The notes under the pieces: model-generated | What the model was told of the DNA's origin: nothing | What the model saw: the letters and a program-made list of their open reading frames with translations, nothing else | The model's database searches: none | Shown: positions 3,278 through 13,606 of the stretch, in pieces | Numbering within the stretch: the first letter of the stretch is position 1 | Layout: every line of letters begins with the position of its first letter | NCBI GenBank assembly: GCA_043803405.1 | Contig: JAZDKB010000018.1 | Span: 192,001 to 256,000, forward strand | Reading direction: 5' to 3' | DNA from: Spirochaetota bacterium | GTDB taxonomy: Bacteria; Spirochaetota; UBA4802; JAFGDQ01 | Length of the DNA: 64,000 bases | Translations under genes and position numbers: made by a program

Positions 3278-6200
3278 TTATATTGTCCTTAAAAGTTCCC
3301 TGAATTTATACATCTCGTCGATATATTTTTGCGCCGACAGATCCCAGTAACTGACCGACTTTTCCGCAAGAATCCTTGCCTTGTATACGATTTCGTCATT
3401 GTTGTTTTTAAAAAAAGCCGATGCTCTTTCCACTGCGTCGTAAAATGCCCATGGGCTGAAGTCCGAAAACAAAAATCCGCTCCCCTGAACCCTGTCCCCG
3501 CTTACGCTGATGGGAAATACGGTATCCCGGAGGCCTCCTGTCGCACGCGCTATTACAAAACAGCCGCATGCAAGAGCCTCAAGCTGGGATATTCCGCCTG
3601 GTTCGTTCATTGACGGCATACAGAAAAAATCGGTAGATAAAAGCGGTATGCGCACATCCTGAAATCCGAAGGAAACCCGTACATTATCCGGATAACAGTT
3701 TCCCAGAATGTAAAGCCCGTGAGCTATTTCTTCGGCCCGGTTGTCGCCCGAAGCGACAGCTCCTCCTATTATTGCCTGGCACCCCAGGCGGGTAAATATT
3801 CCTTCGGAAGCTTCAAGCAAAAGCTGAAAACCCTTTTGTTCCGATATCCGGTGAATCATGCATAAAAGCATTATATCAGGATCTACTTTCAGGTTTTTTT
3901 CCAGTTGAAGCATCATTTTATTAATTAATCTTTTTATAATATACTTACGTTTTTCATCTTCTATATCATTAATTGTTTTTATGCCTTTTATAATTTCAGG
4001 ATACCTTGTCTCGATCTTCTCCCTGAGACGATTTTCTTTTTTTATTTTTTCGATCAGCAATGGATAATATTGTTCAAAAAATCCGGAGCTTTTATAATGA
4101 TGATTAACTCTTTTGCGGAAATCACGTCCAATTGCATTGCTTATCCCCAGAACGTTTTTTACTATGCGTTCAAGTCCGTCGCATGCCCTTTCGATCTGCA
4201 GGGCATAGGACGGGCTTACAGTTATTACTTTATCGGCAAACCGGACCGCAGCTGCCATACAGTTTAGCCTGTCGGGGTGCACGGGATCTGCAAAATCGCC
4301 GGCTCTCCATTGCGGAAGATTAAAAAGATTAAATATGTTAAATCCGTTCTCAAAAAAATGAAATGAGTCGAAATACTGCCATCCGCCGTTATGTATTATA
4401 TGAAGAAATTTAGTCATTGCAAAGTTAGGATTATTTGCATAAAAGGAATCGGAACGGACAATCCCGTTAAATAAACCCGCGTAAGCGTCATTCGTGAAAG
4501 TGAAGTACGGATTTAACTCGAAATTTATTATAACTTCCACGCTGGCTCTTGAAAACGCAACCCTTCTCCTTATCTTTTCCGAGGAAGTAATACCCCAGTA
4601 AAGGCCGTCAAAAAATTCATGATGGTCCAACAGAAAATATTTTACTCCGTCGACTATACCGGAATAAACACCTGCCGTATATTCATCCCCTAAAATCTTA
4701 AATTTTATATTTTTACCGGTATAAGAAATATTATATTTTTTGACCGCCTCTGCCATTTTTTTTACTGCTTTGTCATCTCCATGTTTATAATAACCTGATA
4801 TTACATATACTTCTTCACCCATTCTGGCAAACTCTCTCGGCAGTTCGTATACTACATTTGCAAGTCCGCCGCTTTTTGAAAACGGCTCGGCTTCTGCCGA
4901 TAAAAATACAATGGCTCCTTTTTTATTGTGAAACCTGATATATTCAGCAATTTTCCTTAAAGTATCATCAGGATGCGCTGACAACAGATTTATATAATTA
5001 ATCACAATTTCTTTACTCAGTATATCGTTAATTGAAAGATGGAACAGCGCGCGTTTTATTCCCAGTTCCAGGATGCTGATTTTATCTGCATTGAATAAAG
5101 GTTTAAGTGTAAGCAGGATGTCTGTAAATTTTTCGTAAGTGGAACTTTTAGACGCAATTTCATTAAATGCAAAGTTGGATTTAAAATGTCGCACATCGGA
5201 TATATTGCTCATTCTGGCAAACGAGTCCTTTAAAAAATCATCATAATATTCGCCGATCTCGTCAACTTTAACCAGCTGCAGCAGTTTAATCCTTTCAGTG
5301 AATGATACTGTTGATGTAAGCCTGCTTGTTTTAAGTTCGCGCCCGGTATAGAATCCGTGTTCTCCGGTAATATGCGAATATAACGGATCCACGATCTTGT
5401 AAAACGCATCATCGTCTATCGGAAGAACAGGGTTATCGAACTGAAGCGAAACAAACTGGTTTGAATCTGCGAAGTTGAATACACCGATCCATGTAATATC
5501 CTCGGAGAAATTGATTGCCGCGGCAACCATGTTATTATTTGTCCAGATCAGGTAGCCTTTGCCGGTTATTTTTCTGTGGAATCCGTACCATTCCCTGTAA
5601 AATCCCGAGACGCTGCGGTTTGCCGCATTTTCGAACTGGTTCCAGTTCACATAAATATTGTCAAGGAAGACCTTCCAGCCCTCGCCTTCGGCGCTTCCTT
5701 CGTAATCCATAATTACGCTGCTCATGAACATTGTCAGCCCTACTGCAGCGCGAAGCCCCCTGTGCCCGAACGTATTTAAAGCTCTTCGTTCGTCGTGGTT
5801 CCCCAGAATTCCCAGGAGCTCGGTTCCGGGAGGCAATACTGAAGGATAATGCTGATCATAAATATGATAAATTTCCCTTACATCCGTTTTCCCGTGAATA
5901 ATATTTTCACAAATTTTAAATAAAGCGGAATTATAAGGAACTATGCCTGTGCGGGTCAGATATTTTTCATGGCCCCAGTAACATTCCGCTATATTTAAAA
6001 AGTAATTTTTATTTTTCTCTTTAAGCTTCTTCTCAATACTCAGCATCAGAAAATAATGCAAAGGAACAGCCATAGTATCCCTGCATGCCGAATCGTAATA
6101 ACCTGTTGTGATAAAATGCCCGTCTTCCCTGTCGTTTACAATTATTCTGCCTTCAACCATTTCTTCATGCGTTCTTTTACTGCCGTTTATGAATGGATAG

Positions 6201-8128
6201 TTATTTTTCTTCATCATGATAGGGACCGCATGGGCGGAATCGAACCTGATGCCGTCAATATCGAATTTATCTATAAGCAATGCGACGGAGTCTGCAAGCC
6301 ACTCCCATACTTCGAACTTTCTGTAATTGTGAAGCCTGCCGTCGTCCCAGCTCCCGTAGCGGCCGTCGGTTGACGCCCGCTCAACCAGCTGCCCTTCGTG
6401 GTTGTAGCATTTGACTATGTTATCGGCCGGGAAGTTGCTCTTCCTGTTCAGATGCGGGACAATATCCACTATTATTTTTATTCCGATGGAATGGGCTTTT
6501 TTAATCAGGTTGATAAGTTCAGCCTCGCCGCCGAGGTTCGGTTCGATTTCCGTAAGGCTCATAGGCGAGAAGGGGGAAGGCGATGTAGCGCCCGGCGCCC
6601 AGTCTTCCCTGTTATGACCTCTCAGCTGAACCCCGAGAAGGTAAATGGATGTAATATAATAACGGCTTTTAAGATGCTCAAGGTGAGCTGTAATATCCGA
6701 AAAGTTGCCTAGCCGTATTACTTCGCCGTGTTCATTAAAAACAAGTCCCGGATGGCCGTCGCCGTCCTTCCAGAATCTGCCGGTATGCCCGTGTATATCA
6801 GGAAAAATTTCAAATATGATCTCGCCTCTCATGTCCGGCACTATGTTTATTCTGCCGCTTGAGCCTGCAATGTTAAGCCATCCCTGTTCTTTTTTATCTT
6901 TATACACAAGAAAATCATAATGCCCGAGCTGATCAAACATCATATCTGCAAAATGTATTTTCTTTGTATCGTCATATTCCAGTGGAACATCAAAAAACTC
7001 TATGGAATTTTCAAGTGATATCCTGTTTAAAATATTATATTTATAAATCCTTACAAAATATTTTTGCTTTCCGGCAGGCAGTTTAAAATCCAGCCTGGAC
7101 TTTAAACCAGCTCTTATATTTACAAAACGCTCAGCCATGGGCGCATCGAATTCCTTTGGAGAAAAAATCTTTTCCAGAATAATATTCGCCCTGTTCCTTA
7201 TCTCGTGAATGTCATGACCGGAAGCCGAAACCAGAAGCCTTACTATTTCCTTTATGGATTCCGCATCGCCATCTTTTTTGTATAACCTGGCAAATTTTTC
7301 AAGCGATTCGATCGCCTCCATATTTATATTATAATTAAAATGCATTTCATTGCCGGGCATCCTCGCATCCAGCTTGCTTAAAGCAATTTCACGTTCCTTG
7401 TGAGTGAACCTGGTTATTTTTACAGGCTTAACTTTTACTATTTCCACTTTTTCCGGAGCTAATTTCACCAGTTCATCAACAAGCTCGTTTAAAGCTCTGG
7501 ACACGTAAGGAGGGAAAATCTCTATATGAGCGTATCCGGTTTCAATTGCCCTTGATTCGATCATTAGAAGCAGTTTAAAGGATTCGAACAGCATATTGCC
7601 GTTTTTCTTCTGCTCATTGGCAAGCACGTCAAAAATATTCAGGCCGAGATATATGGAAGGGATTTCATCCCACTCCGGTCCTGTGCCTACATGCGAAATT
7701 ACTGTAGTGCTCTCGGATATATGATAGATTGTAGGCTTCCCGGGCTTTTCCTTTATTATTACGAATCTTCTGTTGTTAAGATTTGTCAGGGCTCCCTCTG
7801 CAATTGCCTTATGAATAAAAAGCGCGGCAGATACCAGGCGGGAAGAGAGCCTTGCGTCGCTCATTAACCTGTTACGATAATTTTCATCGCCGTTTGAAAT
7901 TTTATCAATAATGCCGTTTTTAATCGCGATAAAGCGGTCGCTTAATTGTTCCTGCGAAGCACCTGCTTTAAACTCCGATATAATTAACGAGTCGGGTGAA
8001 AAATCGAAACATCTCTGGTTCATGAAGGCTTCGGTTATTTCATTTCTGACCAGTAAGTCAGTAACTAGATGCTCGTCCTTTAAGCTGAACCTTGAAAGGC
8101 TGCTGAGAGTTGAAGTTGATTTTTGCAA
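3278..8128 (-). CDS. Fusion of a GH13 alpha-amylase-family domain and a C-terminal GT5 glycogen/starch synthase domain, with an uncharacterised N-terminal region
   Basis: GH13 regions DIVPH, GIRFDSAHA, AECYWG, GNHDERR; GT5 motifs SAEAEPFSKSGGLANV, IIHN, TVSPSYA, HRISEQKG, PSMNEPGGISQLEAL, RATGGLRDTV; TTG start with GAGG RBS. Confidence 0.85.
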   Translation of the reverse strand: MQKSTSTLSSLSRFSLKDEHLVTDLLVRNEITEAFMNQRCFDFSPDSLIISEFKAGASQEQLSDRFIAIKNGIIDKISNGDENYRNRLMSDARLSSRLVSAALFIHKAIAEGALTNLNNRRFVIIKEKPGKPTIYHISESTTVISHVGTGPEWDEIPSIYLGLNIFDVLANEQKKNGNMLFESFKLLLMIESRAIETGYAHIEIFPPYVSRALNELVDELVKLAPEKVEIVKVKPVKITRFTHKEREIALSKLDARMPGNEMHFNYNINMEAIESLEKFARLYKKDGDAESIKEIVRLLVSASGHDIHEIRNRANIILEKIFSPKEFDAPMAERFVNIRAGLKSRLDFKLPAGKQKYFVRIYKYNILNRISLENSIEFFDVPLEYDDTKKIHFADMMFDQLGHYDFLVYKDKKEQGWLNIAGSSGRINIVPDMRGEIIFEIFPDIHGHTGRFWKDGDGHPGLVFNEHGEVIRLGNFSDITAHLEHLKSRYYITSIYLLGVQLRGHNREDWAPGATSPSPFSPMSLTEIEPNLGGEAELINLIKKAHSIGIKIIVDIVPHLNRKSNFPADNIVKCYNHEGQLVERASTDGRYGSWDDGRLHNYRKFEVWEWLADSVALLIDKFDIDGIRFDSAHAVPIMMKKNNYPFINGSKRTHEEMVEGRIIVNDREDGHFITTGYYDSACRDTMAVPLHYFLMLSIEKKLKEKNKNYFLNIAECYWGHEKYLTRTGIVPYNSALFKICENIIHGKTDVREIYHIYDQHYPSVLPPGTELLGILGNHDERRALNTFGHRGLRAAVGLTMFMSSVIMDYEGSAEGEGWKVFLDNIYVNWNQFENAANRSVSGFYREWYGFHRKITGKGYLIWTNNNMVAAAINFSEDITWIGVFNFADSNQFVSLQFDNPVLPIDDDAFYKIVDPLYSHITGEHGFYTGRELKTSRLTSTVSFTERIKLLQLVKVDEIGEYYDDFLKDSFARMSNISDVRHFKSNFAFNEIASKSSTYEKFTDILLTLKPLFNADKISILELGIKRALFHLSINDILSKEIVINYINLLSAHPDDTLRKIAEYIRFHNKKGAIVFLSAEAEPFSKSGGLANVVYELPREFARMGEEVYVISGYYKHGDDKAVKKMAEAVKKYNISYTGKNIKFKILGDEYTAGVYSGIVDGVKYFLLDHHEFFDGLYWGITSSEKIRRRVAFSRASVEVIINFELNPYFTFTNDAYAGLFNGIVRSDSFYANNPNFAMTKFLHIIHNGGWQYFDSFHFFENGFNIFNLFNLPQWRAGDFADPVHPDRLNCMAAAVRFADKVITVSPSYALQIERACDGLERIVKNVLGISNAIGRDFRKRVNHHYKSSGFFEQYYPLLIEKIKKENRLREKIETRYPEIIKGIKTINDIEDEKRKYIIKRLINKMMLQLEKNLKVDPDIMLLCMIHRISEQKGFQLLLEASEGIFTRLGCQAIIGGAVASGDNRAEEIAHGLYILGNCYPDNVRVSFGFQDVRIPLLSTDFFCMPSMNEPGGISQLEALACGCFVIARATGGLRDTVFPISVSGDRVQGSGFLFSDFSPWAFYDAVERASAFFKNNNDEIVYKARILAEKSVSYWDLSAQKYIDEMYKFRELLRTI

Positions 8129-8359: not shown

Positions 8360-8809
8360 ATGAAAACAGTTAAGGACATTCTTCAAAACAAAACAATTAA
8401 GGAAATATGGTCAGTATCACCGAAGGCTTTTGTATACGATGCTCTTGTTCTTATGAACGAGAAGGGGATCGGCGCCGTACTGGTTATGGACGAGAAAGAA
8501 AAGATTGCCGGAATATTTTCAGAACGAGATTATGCCAGAAAGATTATCATCAAAGGAAAATCCTCAAAGGAAACGAAAGTAGAGGAAGTAATGACTCCTG
8601 CTTCGAAAATGTATACGGTTAAACCTGATAGTCCTCTTGAAGAATGTATGGCTCTTGCAACTGAGAAACACATCAGGCATTTGCCTGTTTTCGAGCAGGG
8701 CAAATTCATAGGACTTATTTCTACAGGCGATATTGTAAAAATATTGATTTCGGAAAAACAGGACCTAATAAATCAATTAAGCGATTATATTGCCGGTATT
8801 TACACATAA
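8360..8809 (+). CDS. Stand-alone tandem CBS (Bateman) domain protein
   Basis: VKDIL...MNEKGIGAVLV...GIFSERDY and VEEVMT...HIRHLPV...GLISTGD; strong AGGAGG RBS. Confidence 0.9.
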   Translation: MKTVKDILQNKTIKEIWSVSPKAFVYDALVLMNEKGIGAVLVMDEKEKIAGIFSERDYARKIIIKGKSSKETKVEEVMTPASKMYTVKPDSPLEECMALATEKHIRHLPVFEQGKFIGLISTGDIVKILISEKQDLINQLSDYIAGIYT

Positions 8810-8919
8810 AATCGTGTTGTTCCGGATAATAAAAATTGCCTATTGTAACGACAAGATCGCATCACAAAACATGTAAACAGTAAATTTATTTTTGGCAGGT
8901 TTCGGGATACGATCTTAAT

Positions 8920-8950
8920 AAAAAAGCGGGAATCAGTCTCCCGCTTTTTT
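8920..8950 (+). terminator. Intrinsic terminator between the CBS gene and the cNMP-GGDEF pair
   Basis: AAAAAAGCGGGA-atcagtc-TCCCGCTTTTTT. Confidence 0.8.
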
Positions 8951-9024
8951 ATTCGGACTAAAAAGTACTTGCGAAAATATTTTCGTTTATCTAATAATTT
9001 GAGCATATATTTTTTATAAAGGAT

Positions 9025-10023
9025 TTGTATTACTTTAAAATGACAGAAAAAGATTTACTTATTGAAAAAATACAATTGCTCCGCAATGCGAGTCTTTTTT
9101 CAAAGTTGAGAGAAGCCGAGCTTGAGATAGTCGCGGCCTACAGTGAATACTATACTTTTAACCAGGGACAGACTATATTCAGCGAAGGAAGCAATGCCGA
9201 AGTGCTTTACATTATTAAGGACGGCGAGGTTTTAATCAGCAAGGAGAAGAAAAACCTTGGTGTTATCGATCTTGCCCGTTATATTTCCAATGAAAGCTTC
9301 GGCGAGATGAGCCTTCTTACAAATAAATCCAGAACCGCAAAAGCGGTTGCGGAGAAGGATACAACAGTACTTATTTTTCCCATGGAAGGAGTAAAGTTTA
9401 AGGATGTTCTTGAAAAGCATCCGGAAATTTCGGCGCGTATACTGCATAAATTTTTGGCCATAATCGCAGGAAGAATACGCAACACCAACAGGCTTATTTC
9501 GGAGAGAACTCCGTGGATAAGGGATCTGCGCCGGCAGCTCTACAGCGATAAGCTCACAGGGCTTTATAACCGCACATTTATTGAAGAAGATTTTGCTGCG
9601 TTCCTGCCGCAGTACGGGGAATACACAAGCCTCATTATGATTAAACCGGATAATTTTAAGGATATTAACGATAATTTCGGACATGATGTAGGCGACAAGG
9701 TTTTGCGGCTTCTAGCGATCTTTTTGCAGTCCATCCTTAGAGAAGAAGATATGGGAGTACGGTACAGGGGAGACGAGTTTGCTGCAATTCTGCCGAACAC
9801 AAGCACCGAAGAAGCGATAGAGATTGCAGATGACATAAGGTCGACCATTATGGAAATGGATATAGGAAATGCCACGAACGGCGAGCTGAACAAAATAACG
9901 GTAAGCATCGGGCTCTCGACTTATCCGTTCCATGCGAGCGATAACATTATGCTTGCGGACAGGGCACACGAAAAGATGTTCGAGGCGCGCGAAAAAGGCG
10001 GCAACCGCGTGATCAGCGTGTAG
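9025..10023 (+). CDS. cNMP-binding domain + degenerate GGDEF domain protein (RGDEF)
   Basis: FGEMSLL..RTA phosphate-binding cassette; DKLTGLYNR; IKPDNFKDINDNFGHDVGD; RYRGDEF. Start may be ATG 9040. Confidence 0.9.
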   Translation: MYYFKMTEKDLLIEKIQLLRNASLFSKLREAELEIVAAYSEYYTFNQGQTIFSEGSNAEVLYIIKDGEVLISKEKKNLGVIDLARYISNESFGEMSLLTNKSRTAKAVAEKDTTVLIFPMEGVKFKDVLEKHPEISARILHKFLAIIAGRIRNTNRLISERTPWIRDLRRQLYSDKLTGLYNRTFIEEDFAAFLPQYGEYTSLIMIKPDNFKDINDNFGHDVGDKVLRLLAIFLQSILREEDMGVRYRGDEFAAILPNTSTEEAIEIADDIRSTIMEMDIGNATNGELNKITVSIGLSTYPFHASDNIMLADRAHEKMFEAREKGGNRVISV

Positions 10024-10141
10024 CAACTTATGCTGCTAGTCATCTTAAAAATTAAGTTTTATATTAAGTAGATTGAATGTTTTAAAATCATATTTTTAAG
10101 ATAAGTTATTATATAATATTATTTGTGATAATGTAATTATT

Positions 10142-11113
10142 ATGAAAGCCACCATTGAATTTCTGCAAAACGTAGATTTATTCTCGCTCCTCTCGGATGA
10201 AGAGATGGGCAGGATAATAAAATCACTTCATCCTGTTGAGAAAGAGGCGGATGAAATATTGTTTAAAGAAGGAGACGAGGGCAACGAACTCTTTATAGTA
10301 ATGTCGGGCAAAGTTGCCAGCTTTGTAGTGTTGCCTAAAGGCACAAAGCGTGAGATCGCCGAGTTTAAGCCCGGGGATTTTTTCGGCGAAATGTCAATTT
10401 TTGAAAACACGCACAGATCGGCAACCTGCTATACAAAAGAAAAAAGCTCTCTCTTAACCCTGAGGGAAAGAGACCTCTTTGAACTGATACTTTACGACCC
10501 GGAAATCGCAATTAAAATAATGTACCGCATGCTTAACATTACAACTGACCGGCTTCTCGACAGGAGCGAATTTTTATCGGACATGGTACAGTGGGGGGAG
10601 GAAGCGCGTAAAAGGGCAATCACGGACGAGCTGACCGGCATTTACAACAGGCGTTTTCTTGATGACTCCCTGACAGATTATTTTGAAAAAGCAAAAAACA
10701 GCGGCGAATCATTATCTTTCATAATGCTGGACATAGATAATTTTAAACAATACAGCGAAATGTTTACGCAAAGCCAGGTTAACCGTTTAATAATTGAAGT
10801 CGTATCCGTATTTAAAAAATATTTCAGGGAAAACGATATAATTGCAAGGTACGGAGGCGATGAATTCACCGCCATATTGCCGGATACGGATCCGGAGTCC
10901 GCATTTAAGATTGCCGACGAGATACGCAAAGCTGTCAGCGAATTACGCTTTGCGGAATTGCTGAATAGCGACATCGGGCAGATAACAATCAGCCAGGGAA
11001 TTTCCTCATATCCTCAAAATGCCGATGATCCTGAAACCTTAAGAGTAAAAGCAGACAAAGCGCTTTATAAAGCAAAACTGGAAGGCAGAAATAAAGTCGT
11101 TCTTGCAGAATAG
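10142..11113 (+). CDS. cNMP-binding domain + GGDEF domain protein with altered guanine-binding site
   Basis: FGEMSIF..RSA cassette; DELTGIYNR; LDIDNFKQYSEMFTQSQVN; RYGGDEF; ADKALYKAKLEGRN. Confidence 0.9.
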   Translation: MKATIEFLQNVDLFSLLSDEEMGRIIKSLHPVEKEADEILFKEGDEGNELFIVMSGKVASFVVLPKGTKREIAEFKPGDFFGEMSIFENTHRSATCYTKEKSSLLTLRERDLFELILYDPEIAIKIMYRMLNITTDRLLDRSEFLSDMVQWGEEARKRAITDELTGIYNRRFLDDSLTDYFEKAKNSGESLSFIMLDIDNFKQYSEMFTQSQVNRLIIEVVSVFKKYFRENDIIARYGGDEFTAILPDTDPESAFKIADEIRKAVSELRFAELLNSDIGQITISQGISSYPQNADDPETLRVKADKALYKAKLEGRNKVVLAE

Positions 11114-11116
11114 ATT

Positions 11117-11803
11117 TTACTTTAATTTATTTGTTTTTCCAATAATAGAAATCTTTATTCTGAGGTTCTTCATTGTAAAAGAAGTAAATCTGTCGGGCCT
11201 TAACTTCATCAGATTAAAATCGATTACGGAACCGTCTTTTGTATTTGGATGGATATTTACTTCAAGGCGGGATGCTGTCGGAATTCTTCCAACGCCGTTG
11301 CATACATGGCAGTATCTGTCCTCTCCGCGGCACACATGGCAATCCATCCTTGAAGGCAGTTCCACATAAGCCACTGCCCCGTTTTCGGATTCTTTCGGAG
11401 TAATAAAAATCTCGATATCCTGGCCGAATGCGCGCATCCTTTCTTTTCTTCCGATCTTTTTATTCAGAAGCCTGGTTGTGAGCAGATCCTTGAGAGATAT
11501 GGAGTATTTAATGCGGTTTTTAGGAAGATAAACATAGCCTTCACTGCTAAACCTGCCGTTTAACAGCACTTTTGTATAATCGCGTCTGAGTTCATCGTTT
11601 ATTAGTATCTTGTAGCCTTTGATAATAAGATCGACTTTCTTTTTTTCTTCATCGGAGTTTTTTCCCGAAATATCCGGATGATATATTTTAATTAAATTAC
11701 AAAAAGCAGACCGGATTAATTCCTTCTTTGCTTTGTAAGGAATATTCAGGATCTCATAAAAGTCGATCAAATTGCCTTTATCGTCGCAATAAGGCTTATT
11801 CAT
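11117..11803 (-). CDS. J-domain (DnaJ-like) protein with a single Cys4 zinc-finger unit
   Basis: DFYEILN...YHPD J domain; CHVCRG..CHVCNGVG; short DnaJ C-terminal-like segment. Confidence 0.75.
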   Translation of the reverse strand: MNKPYCDDKGNLIDFYEILNIPYKAKKELIRSAFCNLIKIYHPDISGKNSDEEKKKVDLIIKGYKILINDELRRDYTKVLLNGRFSSEGYVYLPKNRIKYSISLKDLLTTRLLNKKIGRKERMRAFGQDIEIFITPKESENGAVAYVELPSRMDCHVCRGEDRYCHVCNGVGRIPTASRLEVNIHPNTKDGSVIDFNLMKLRPDRFTSFTMKNLRIKISIIGKTNKLK

Positions 11804-11881
11804 TTGAATAACCGTATACTATCTTTTAAATATAATTATATAAATATGCAGACTTAGAGTGCGTGCTAAAACATCGCCGGT

Positions 11882-13606
11882 TTAGTTCTGCACCGCGGCC
11901 TGTGCGCGGATCAAATCATGCAGAGTAATTATTCCATAGACTGAATTTTTGCTCCTGTCAAGTACAAGCAAAACATGAACAGCAGATTCAACAAACTTAT
12001 TTCCAACGTCCTTAACTGATTCATCTGAATAACAAGTGCTGATTTCCTGCATCACTGGAATATTATGCCTTTTAACAGCATCCTTTATTTGCTGACGAGT
12101 AACTATACCCTGTATCTGTTCATTTATAATAACAGGAAAAGCATTGAACGGATATTGATCGAGCAAAGCCTGCATCTTTTTTTCTGTAAATTCTTCAAGT
12201 ACAACAGGATTGGGACTTGCAATGGCTGAAACCGGTAGACTCTGCCAGCTTTGCAGATCAAGCGGCGGCCTGATTTTGTGAAGCTCATGCCCGTCCTGAA
12301 CAAGGAGAGCGTCATAAAAATTCAGCTTGCCGGAGCGCCGGGCAATCGCCTGGCTGATGATCGTCCCCAGCATAAGACCCGGCACAATAGCGAACTGATG
12401 CGTCATCTCAAACACAATAAGCATGGACGTTAAAGGCGCACGGACGATCGTTCCCAGGCATGCGCTCATTCCAACAGAAGCAAGCACAATATGATCAGCC
12501 TGTGTTAATGGTATAAACAAATTTGCCAGTCCGGCAAAAAAATAACCTGTTAATCCCCCAATAAATAAAGACGGGGCAAATATGCCTCCGCAGCCACCGA
12601 AACTGTAGCCGGCAATTGTAGCGAATAATTTAGCACAGACAAGAATGCCTGCGATTTTCCATTCAAAGTTATTGCTTAATGCAGCAGAAAGATCCTGATA
12701 GCCAAGACCGAACACGCCAATTTTTCCGGTTGCCATGAAGACACTGCACCCGATGATCCATGTGATAATCCCGCCGCACAACGGAAGCAGCCATAAAGGG
12801 ATTTTCTTCTGCTTTTTCAAATTTCCCCTGAAAAAGACAGTTGCGCGTTGAAAAATTACACCTGCAAAAGATGCGACAAGAGAAACGAGCGATACAACAA
12901 GATAATGGAACCAGCTGATGTCTTCAACAGACGGTATTGAAAACGCCGGCTGCCTGCCGAGAATGGCATATACTACAAAAGCGCCTATTACAGATGAAAG
13001 TACAACGCGTCCCAGAAACCTGCTGTTTAGATCCCCAAGTATTTCTTCAATAACAAAAGTAATAGCTGCGATAGGCGTGTTAAAGGCGGCCGCAAGACCG
13101 GCCGATGCGCCAATCAGAGTGGCGCTTCTCCGCTGACGAAACGACGCTCCCAGTAATCCATCCAGGCCGGAAGATATGCCGCTGCCAATATACACGGAAG
13201 GACCTTCCCGTCCAAGGCTGTTTCCTCCGCCAATGCTTAATACTCCTGCGACAAATTTAACTAATACCGGCTTAAAGCTCATGTATCCTAGCTCTTTCCA
13301 GTAAGCTGTTTTAACCTGGGGAATTCCGCTGCCTGCTGCTTCCGGGCTGAATACATTCAATAAATAACCGACAAGCAGGGAAGTGGAAGTAATGACAAGG
13401 AAACTTGCTGTTATAAAAAAGACAGGCGATTTTGTTTTAAAATAGATATATGTATGCGAAAACAGTAGATTTGTTAAAAATAAAAAACTGACTGCAGCCA
13501 GACCGGCAGCCATACTTAGAACACATGTTACTATTATAGATCTAATATTTTCAGGAAAGCGCTGCAGTAAATTTACTATAAATTTTTGATTTAACTCATT
13601 ATTCAA
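11882..13606 (-). CDS. ClC family H+/Cl- antiporter with C-terminal CBS pair
   Basis: GSGIP, GREGP (gating Glu), FVIEE, GGIFAP, FYDALL motifs; C-terminal CBS repeats. Confidence 0.9.
   Translation of the reverse strand: MNNELNQKFIVNLLQRFPENIRSIIVTCVLSMAAGLAAVSFLFLTNLLFSHTYIYFKTKSPVFFITASFLVITSTSLLVGYLLNVFSPEAAGSGIPQVKTAYWKELGYMSFKPVLVKFVAGVLSIGGGNSLGREGPSVYIGSGISSGLDGLLGASFRQRRSATLIGASAGLAAAFNTPIAAITFVIEEILGDLNSRFLGRVVLSSVIGAFVVYAILGRQPAFSIPSVEDISWFHYLVVSLVSLVASFAGVIFQRATVFFRGNLKKQKKIPLWLLPLCGGIITWIIGCSVFMATGKIGVFGLGYQDLSAALSNNFEWKIAGILVCAKLFATIAGYSFGGCGGIFAPSLFIGGLTGYFFAGLANLFIPLTQADHIVLASVGMSACLGTIVRAPLTSMLIVFEMTHQFAIVPGLMLGTIISQAIARRSGKLNFYDALLVQDGHELHKIRPPLDLQSWQSLPVSAIASPNPVVLEEFTEKKMQALLDQYPFNAFPVIINEQIQGIVTRQQIKDAVKRHNIPVMQEISTCYSDESVKDVGNKFVESAVHVLLVLDRSKNSVYGIITLHDLIRAQAAVQN

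Follow-up and report, generated by a model that had tools for sequence, protein, structure and literature searches.

A candidate heterodimeric GGDEF synthase: tandem cyclic nucleotide-binding proteins of Spirochaetota divide the catalytic residues of a diguanylate cyclase between them

Two genes with one set of catalytic residues

We analysed a stretch of 64,000 nucleotides from a Spirochaetota bacterium (assembly GCA_043803405.1, contig JAZDKB010000018.1, positions 192,001 to 256,000 of the forward strand), hereafter called the window, in which two neighbouring genes on the plus strand, A (9040..10023) and B (10142..11113), each encode a cyclic nucleoside monophosphate (cNMP)-binding domain, a coiled-coil linker and a GGDEF domain. 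From the residues that are kept and lost in the two proteins and their homologues, it is fairly probable that A and B are obligate partners in a heterodimer that is regulated by cNMP and has one catalytic centre. Judged from the alignments, the family keeps one of two symmetric half-sites, which is composed of the trans-acting residues of A and the metal site of B.

Both proteins match cNMP_binding and GGDEF in Pfam, GGDEF scoring above the cut-off in each; they are 30% identical, and their linkers have the same register. Gene A encodes the putative acceptor subunit of 327 amino acids with a metal-less GGDEF domain. Its open frame opens at a TTG at position 9025, where the original prediction had placed the start, but the ATG at 9040 is the likelier start given the database protein of 327 amino acids. 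Gene B encodes the putative donor subunit of 323 amino acids, whose GGDEF domain has intact metal and triphosphate residues. The alignment of B to PleD is free of gaps, which bore out the PleD numbering used earlier; PleD numbers, given throughout, correspond to the B position plus 130 and to the DgcR number plus 153.

In A, the guanine pocket and the trans-acting residues are intact and the first metal ligand is gone (9643..9696). Lys-Pro replaces D327-I328 (9643), followed by K332 (9658), N335 (9667), D336 (9670), H340 (9682), G343 (9691) and D344 (9694). The GGDEF motif reads RGDEF (9766..9780), with Arg in place of G368. Further downstream (9967..10002) we found D435H (9967), Y439F (9979), K442R (9988) and R446G (10000), changes that, by the residue roles given below, amount to the loss of the cross-dimer partners and of the gamma-phosphate ligand. 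In B, on the other hand, D327 (10730) is retained and the base pocket is changed (10730..10783) by N335S (10754), D336E, H340Q (10769), G343V (10778) and D344N (10781). The GGDEF motif of B (10853..10867) is intact, and so are D435 (11054), Y439 (11066), K442 (11075) and R446 (11087), which lie within 11054..11089. The codons on which the original prediction was built (in A, Lys at 9643, Asn at 9667, Asp at 9694 and RGDEF at 9766; in B, Ser at 10754, Asn at 10781 and GGDEF at 10853) are located where it had put them and in frame, while G343V and H340Q of B and the invariant I328P of A were absent from it. Neither protein has the residue set of a canonical diguanylate cyclase (DGC), as no chain joins a complete metal and phosphate site with N335 and D344: A is without D327, K442 and R446 but has the guanine readers, and the metal site of B is intact but is combined with S335 and N344.

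Conservation of the split

We collected 293 A and 291 B modules, which after de-duplication at 70% gave 130 A and 109 B proteins (108 B proteins at the C-terminal sites). K332, D336, H340, G343 and D344 are each kept in 130/130 A proteins and N335 in 129/130. D327 is found in none of them (Lys in all 130), D435 in none, Y439 in 13, K442 in one (Arg in 117) and R446 in one (Gly in 129); the Arg of the RGDEF motif occurs in 105/130. B proteins retained the other part of the set, namely D327, D370 and E371 (109/109), D435 and K442 (108/108), Y439 (105/108) and R300 (108/109), and lost K332 (kept in 7/109), D336 (18) and H340 (51). As controls, we took 69 GGDEF domains from non-family loci and 18 others of this genome, and used the 84 with intact metal residues. 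This set, which is biased by the search pattern and includes 23 domains with Ser344, keeps K332 in 80, D336 in 77, H340 in 81, D435 in 80, Y439 in 75, K442 in 82, and N335 and G343 in all 84. The A signature was found again in 107 representative A-type modules from an independent search of 50% clusters: K327, P328, K332, H340, G343 and D344 are present in 107/107 and N335 in 104/107.

The roles of these residues follow work on two GGDEF enzymes. According to the DgcR paper (PMC8041772), the guanine base is contacted by N335 and D344, the metals by D327, E370 and E371, and the gamma-phosphate by K442 and R446. The same paper models the competent dimer with K179 (K332) acting on the alpha-phosphate of the partner and with D183-Y286 (D336-Y439) and D282-H187 (D435-H340) as pairs across the dimer (PMC8041772). 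The GacA paper proposes that E371 serves as a base in trans and that R300 stacks on the nucleobase of the partner (PMC6456294). The original prediction had described A as a metal-free guanine acceptor half and B as a metal and triphosphate donor half, and the catalytic residues divide accordingly. The division is in fact sharper than had been proposed, since it includes the cross-dimer contacts of DgcR. The case for an obligate heterodimer rests mainly on this split, mapped onto the modelled complex.

The phosphate-binding cassette of the cNMP domain, with Gly-Glu and Arg, is found in both proteins of the window, as FGE...RTA in A (9298..9339, plus strand) and FGE...RSA in B (10382..10423, plus strand). 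The cassette Arg is kept in 89 of the 130 A proteins, and in 33/33 members of the clade of B proteins to which window B belongs (see below). At least one subunit has the sensor Arg in 109/110 pairs; loss of the Arg in B is confined to about one clade, and hence this count is weak. A source of the ligand exists, as seven class III cyclase domains are encoded in the genome. The two proteins had also been credited with an inhibitory site (I-site) for the product. RxxD is indeed present in both, but the site is incomplete, its third primary residue R390 being Asp in A and Glu in B. The full set of RxxD and R390 occurs in 4/130 A and 13/109 B proteins, and product inhibition through this site is doubtful because R390 is absent.

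Gene order, fusions and distribution

The named homologues of A and B are from Spirochaetota. An A profile (E <= 1e-60, best five candidates per genome scored; B-type genes also pass) matched 106 of 401 Spirochaetota genomes, with two large families without a match (0/80 and 0/37). Among 140 non-duplicate loci, collected via A or B matches, A lies directly upstream of B in 102 and the two are fused in 18; 11 loci have A only and nine B only, one of these nine at a contig end. Six genomes carry both a lone A and a lone B. A homologue search with one fusion gave 57 proteins, of which 47 full-length fusions were aligned; all have the order A-then-B and a short linker of one length throughout. As a side observation, all 47 have Asn at the D370 position of A.

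The distances among A proteins correlate with those among B proteins (r = 0.85 over 110 pairs), a correlation that shared ancestry alone can yield. With 102 adjacent and 18 fused loci and this co-divergence, the adjacency across homologues that the original prediction had proposed to check was found. In 10 pairwise comparisons among five close genomes, the proportion of nonsynonymous differences (pN) was 0.06-0.16 for A and 0.10-0.19 for B, and that of synonymous differences (pS) was 0.72-0.88; pS is saturated, so no dN/dS estimate is given. The low pN against a saturated pS and a pattern that is kept across hundreds of homologues agree with the earlier view that neither gene is decaying.

This genome has three A-then-B pairs: that of the window, a second on contig C15 (154847-156835) whose B has a canonical guanine pocket, and a third on contig C39 (7031-12508) whose B shows D344N together with a degenerate cNMP cassette. 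For each of them, the orthologous pair in relatives is the closest. The C39 pair is preceded by a divergent class III cyclase gene and followed by a GAF-HD gene that has a GYP motif and points to cyclic di-GMP (c-di-GMP) for that pair.

Remodelling of the base pocket of B

N335, G343 and D344 are all kept in 71/109 B proteins, compared to 129/130 A proteins. The loss of the guanine helix in B, which had been read as the mirror image of A, is thus not a property of the family. By parsimony the pocket of B changed eight times, and at least four times on strongly supported branches of a 128-row FastTree tree that was built with the pocket columns themselves included; a quick tree was made as well. 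The clade of window B contains one pair from each of seven genomes of its own family, with a support of 85 in the quick tree and 99 in the FastTree tree. In two genomes of this family (G003 and G004), the remodelled pair is the sole match to the A and B queries.

For a wider view of this clade, we picked 33 proteins out of the best 120 B matches. All 33 have Val, Ile or Thr at position 343, S335 is found in 27 and Q340 in 26; position 344 is Asn in 28 and Asp in five, and N335 is kept in 2/33. No variation was seen at D327, D370, E371, D435, K442, R300 or the sensor Arg. Of the eight clade-diagnostic positions listed for the GGDEF domain, five fall within B residues 198-214. This pocket looks like one that has been rebuilt, not decayed. 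Because S335, V/I/T343 and N344 were rebuilt while the catalytic residues were kept, the donor of the window clade is probably no longer selective for GTP. By our own reasoning, a beta-branched residue at 343 would fill the space of the guanine 2-amino group, and Asn344 could read adenine.

The complete remodelling of the pocket (S335, V/I/T343 and N344) is limited to the window clade. Of the conserved complementary substitutions that the original prediction had envisaged, the catalytic split holds across the family, but the change of the guanine pocket of B holds for this clade only. In a second clade, to which the C39 pair belongs, B carries D344N and a degenerate sensor and retains N335. 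A further B clade (L121-L126, L136-L139 and L089) has Cys at G343, Gly or Ser at K332 and a strongly diverged A, and includes complete genomes of about 2.8 Mb. An analogy to the Hypr enzymes had also been drawn and fails at the residue level, with Asn instead of Ser or Thr at 344 and with N335 and G343 changed too. A Hypr-type (cGAMP synthase) identity of B was rejected, as Ser/Thr344 is absent and N335 occurs in 2/33; the GGDEF motif of the Hypr enzymes is present.

A proposed single-site heterodimer and its product

In the mechanism that we propose, A would hold a guanine nucleotide without a metal. The invariant Lys at the D327 position together with R368 and R442 might stand in for Mg by binding a phosphate. 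B would hold a metal-bound triphosphate, and the 3'-OH of the nucleotide in A would attack the alpha-phosphate of that in B to give pppGpN. Following the DgcR and GacA models, A would supply K332, which reaches the alpha-phosphate in B, as well as D336 and H340, which would pair with Y439 and D435 of B; the metals would come from B, together with E371, K442/R446 and R300. The other half-site would be silenced, a single bond would form per binding event, and the register of the coiled coil would be set by binding of cAMP or cGMP. A guanine pocket in B, which most of the family has, would lead to pppGpG, and then to c-di-GMP if the intermediate rebinds in reversed orientation. With an adenine-preferring B, the reaction would end at pppGpA; since A reads only G, this product could not be closed to a ring.

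If any part of the family makes a changed product, the window clade is the likeliest. Given a heterodimer, we see roughly an even chance that its product is something other than c-di-GMP, most likely linear pppGpA, and about one chance in three that it is still c-di-GMP; what remains is no product. The most specific version is a tentative one, and we hold it as a possibility only: the window pair may be a cAMP- or cGMP-gated single-site ligase that joins GTP (in A) and ATP (in B) to a linear G-p-A, which is removed by a DHH/DHHA1 phosphoesterase, with V343, N344 and S335 of B shutting out the guanine 2-amino group. To our knowledge, linear G-p-A is not known as a messenger from GGDEF enzymes.

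A natural fusion of 645 amino acids was folded with the 47-row alignment. The mean predicted local distance difference test score (pLDDT) was 85.5 and the predicted template modelling score (pTM) 0.38; the domains are modelled with confidence, their arrangement is not. A fold search with this model found only known cNMP and GGDEF structures, and the same was the case for A in the Atlas.

Several observations weigh against the heterodimer. E371 of A is kept in just 87/107 of the distant representatives, and all counts inflate the number of events, as kin are not independent. The roles of K332 and of the cross-dimer contacts come from a modelled, unsolved DgcR complex. One partner stands alone in 20/140 loci. 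The fusion linker of a few residues seems ill-suited to a parallel dimer within one chain, and domain-swapped oligomers may be needed. The change of K332 in B is mostly to Arg, which is mild, and the residue is Lys again in 25/33 clade members, so that B may also form homodimers. Finally, a review names N335 and D344 as essential to the activity of DGCs (PMC7288161), and window B may simply fail to bind a nucleotide.

Alternatively, B could be an ordinary homodimeric cNMP-regulated cyclase such as XC_0249, and A a dead paralogue that binds GTP or c-di-GMP and tunes or poisons B by competing for dimer formation. Most B proteins do keep the metal, phosphate and guanine residues, some loci have B alone, and degenerate and active GGDEF domains of Escherichia coli interact, the degenerate ones being proposed as inhibitors and not as catalytic halves (PMC5635695). 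However, this leaves unexplained why B lost K332 (7/109), D336 (18) and H340 (51), which 77-81 of the 84 controls keep, and gives no reason why A keeps exactly these three. A lasting fusion of an enzyme with its inhibitor (18 loci; about 50 proteins) would be awkward, and a homodimer of window-clade B has no guanine pocket. We regard an inhibitory A as unlikely.

The pairs could also be heterodimers, with those of the window clade serving as nucleotide sensors without catalysis or as slow NTPases because their B is unable to hold the base. N335, G343 and D344 are all altered there, the first two being kept in 84/84 controls, and degenerate GGDEF domains are known that act as GTP sensors (CC3396) or ATPases (YybT/GdpP), as reviewed (PMC7288161). 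In addition, precomputed Pfam matches for the best 120 B matches place PF24898, the GdpP-type GGDEF, in 26/33 clade members compared to 7/87 other B proteins. This family is unspecific, however: window B scores 25.4 bits, and 27.5 in a second search, against a cut-off of 30, and an A-type gene scores higher. The invariant catalytic residues of clade B, new pocket residues that are fixed and not scattered, and the lack of an output domain all speak against this reading, which we consider quite improbable. That A and B are a duplicated cyclase in slow, independent decay is hardly credible. Each has lost residues that are called essential in canonical cyclases (PMC7288161), but the substitute residues are invariant in 107 clusters at 50% identity, purifying selection is strong, and gene order, fusions and co-divergence are conserved. 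The heterodimer with a single site is the reading that we prefer.

DHH/DHHA1 phosphoesterases linked to B

A particular DHH/DHHA1 gene lies directly behind B or is fused to it in 31/140 loci, and the Atlas contains a 52-member cNMP-GGDEF-DHH cluster. The gene was found in 92/401 genomes, of which 82 are positive for the A profile and 10 are without a full-length A-type match. A strict coupling of this gene to the pair was rejected, with 82/92 DHH genomes positive for A and 82/106 A-positive genomes having the DHH gene. Linear dinucleotides, and some cyclic ones, are substrates of DHH/DHHA1-type enzymes. The link is therefore compatible with a dinucleotide product but does not tell which one.

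In this genome, the DHH gene is on contig C34 and not beside the window pair. There (8740-12171), it lies 15 bases behind a gene for a class III nucleotidyl cyclase of 748 amino acids. At other loci the phosphoesterase gene follows gene B; here the arrangement ties it to cNMP synthesis. The fusions of cNMP, GGDEF (B) and DHH domains (P0291, P0292, P0295 and P0296; L097 and L105) recall GdpP and have an intact GGDEF motif.

Surroundings of the pair in the window

Upstream of gene A, beyond a terminator-like hairpin, lies a gene for a stand-alone CBS-pair protein (8360-8809, plus strand). The hairpin is a perfect 15-bp inverted repeat with A/T tails (8917..8953, strand-neutral), which was read from the sequence and not listed by a consensus scan; it is likely a two-way terminator that divides the CBS gene from gene A. 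In one groundwater metatranscriptome, two short contigs were nearly identical to the CBS gene, the sole part of the region with such contigs, and nothing informative was found on A or B. A scan with Rfam found no family near the pair, and two tRNAs far off. A search of the genome for c-di-GMP-I riboswitches found nothing, but its controls were equally blank and the result carries no weight; matches to promoter consensus sequences were likewise given none. The neighbours in the window encode the CBS protein, a DnaJ-like protein, a glycogen enzyme and a chloride channel, and are not shared beyond close relatives. On the minus strand, 3278-8128 encodes a protein of 1616 amino acids with an alpha-amylase-family domain and a C-terminal glycogen synthase domain.

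Implications and comparison with known systems

A full-text literature search found no paper on such a GGDEF pair by title or abstract opening, with most subscription papers and supplements outside its scope. The A-B family is a real and conserved variant of GGDEF signalling that is apparently unpublished. Cyclases with a GGDEF domain are regarded as homodimers, and domains without the metal Asp are annotated as dead. The family suggests that a 'dead' GGDEF domain can serve as a dedicated catalytic half, and its conservation pattern independently agrees with the modelled Michaelis complex of DgcR. It would also offer a natural experiment on which residues act in trans and on whether the two bonds of c-di-GMP form singly. 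With donor and acceptor sites on separate genes, donor specificity would be free to change alone, and the B pocket changed at least four, perhaps eight, times, so that new linear or mixed dinucleotides could arise in a simple way. As two small soluble proteins, the pair is tractable, and the canonical C15 pair is a natural control in the same genome.

Like the canonical DGCs PleD, DgcR and PadC, A and B have the GGDEF fold, the DxLT turn and a coiled-coil input, and jointly they hold one full catalytic set. Unlike them, each chain has half of this set, one site would be workable and a full I-site is missing. For PadC, an asymmetric formation of the first bond via pppGpG was proposed (PMC6005682). 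Single-chain enzymes regulated by cNMP have been reported (PMC8846402, PMC3770947). Among them, XC_0249 of Xanthomonas campestris resembles A and B in its cNMP-binding and GGDEF domains and in an adjoining class III cyclase gene, as at the C39 pair (PMC3770947). However, XC_0249 is a single, self-sufficient and cGMP-stimulated maker of c-di-GMP, and the consulted part of that paper does not describe a dead partner (PMC3770947).

The Hypr enzymes GacA and Bd0367 share with B a changed D344 position, GGDEF in place of GGEEF and the idea of ATP entry. They are homodimers with Ser or Thr at 344 and N335 kept (PMC6456294, PMC9140294), in contrast to B, which has Asn344, Ser335 and Val343 and keeps Arg at the cross-dimer R300 position. 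The 23 control domains with Ser344, the Hypr signature (L175-L234, mostly from Nitrospirota, Acidobacteriota and Vicinamibacteria), all keep N335 and G343. GdpP/YybT resembles the B-DHH fusions in that a GGDEF domain is joined to DHH/DHHA1, and window B has the weak PF24898 match below the cut-off; B differs in its intact GGDEF motif and its cNMP sensor, so that GdpP is set apart at the level of motifs and domains, not of residues. In cGAS and DncV, one active site performs two steps with a linear intermediate that turns round (PMC6456294), which is the route that a single-site GGDEF pair would need to cyclise its product; their monomeric nucleotidyltransferase fold is unrelated.

In its working principle, the A-B pair would be matched best by soluble guanylate cyclase and the heterodimeric adenylate cyclases, which also have paralogous subunits with complementary residues. 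The subunits of soluble guanylate cyclase are about 30% identical and form an obligate heterodimer, in which one site is active and the other is pseudosymmetric (PMC8196705). These are class III mononucleotide cyclases that act on one substrate, whereas a GGDEF pair would join two nucleotides. The A-B family may thus have taken the same step from homodimer to heterodimer as soluble guanylate cyclase.

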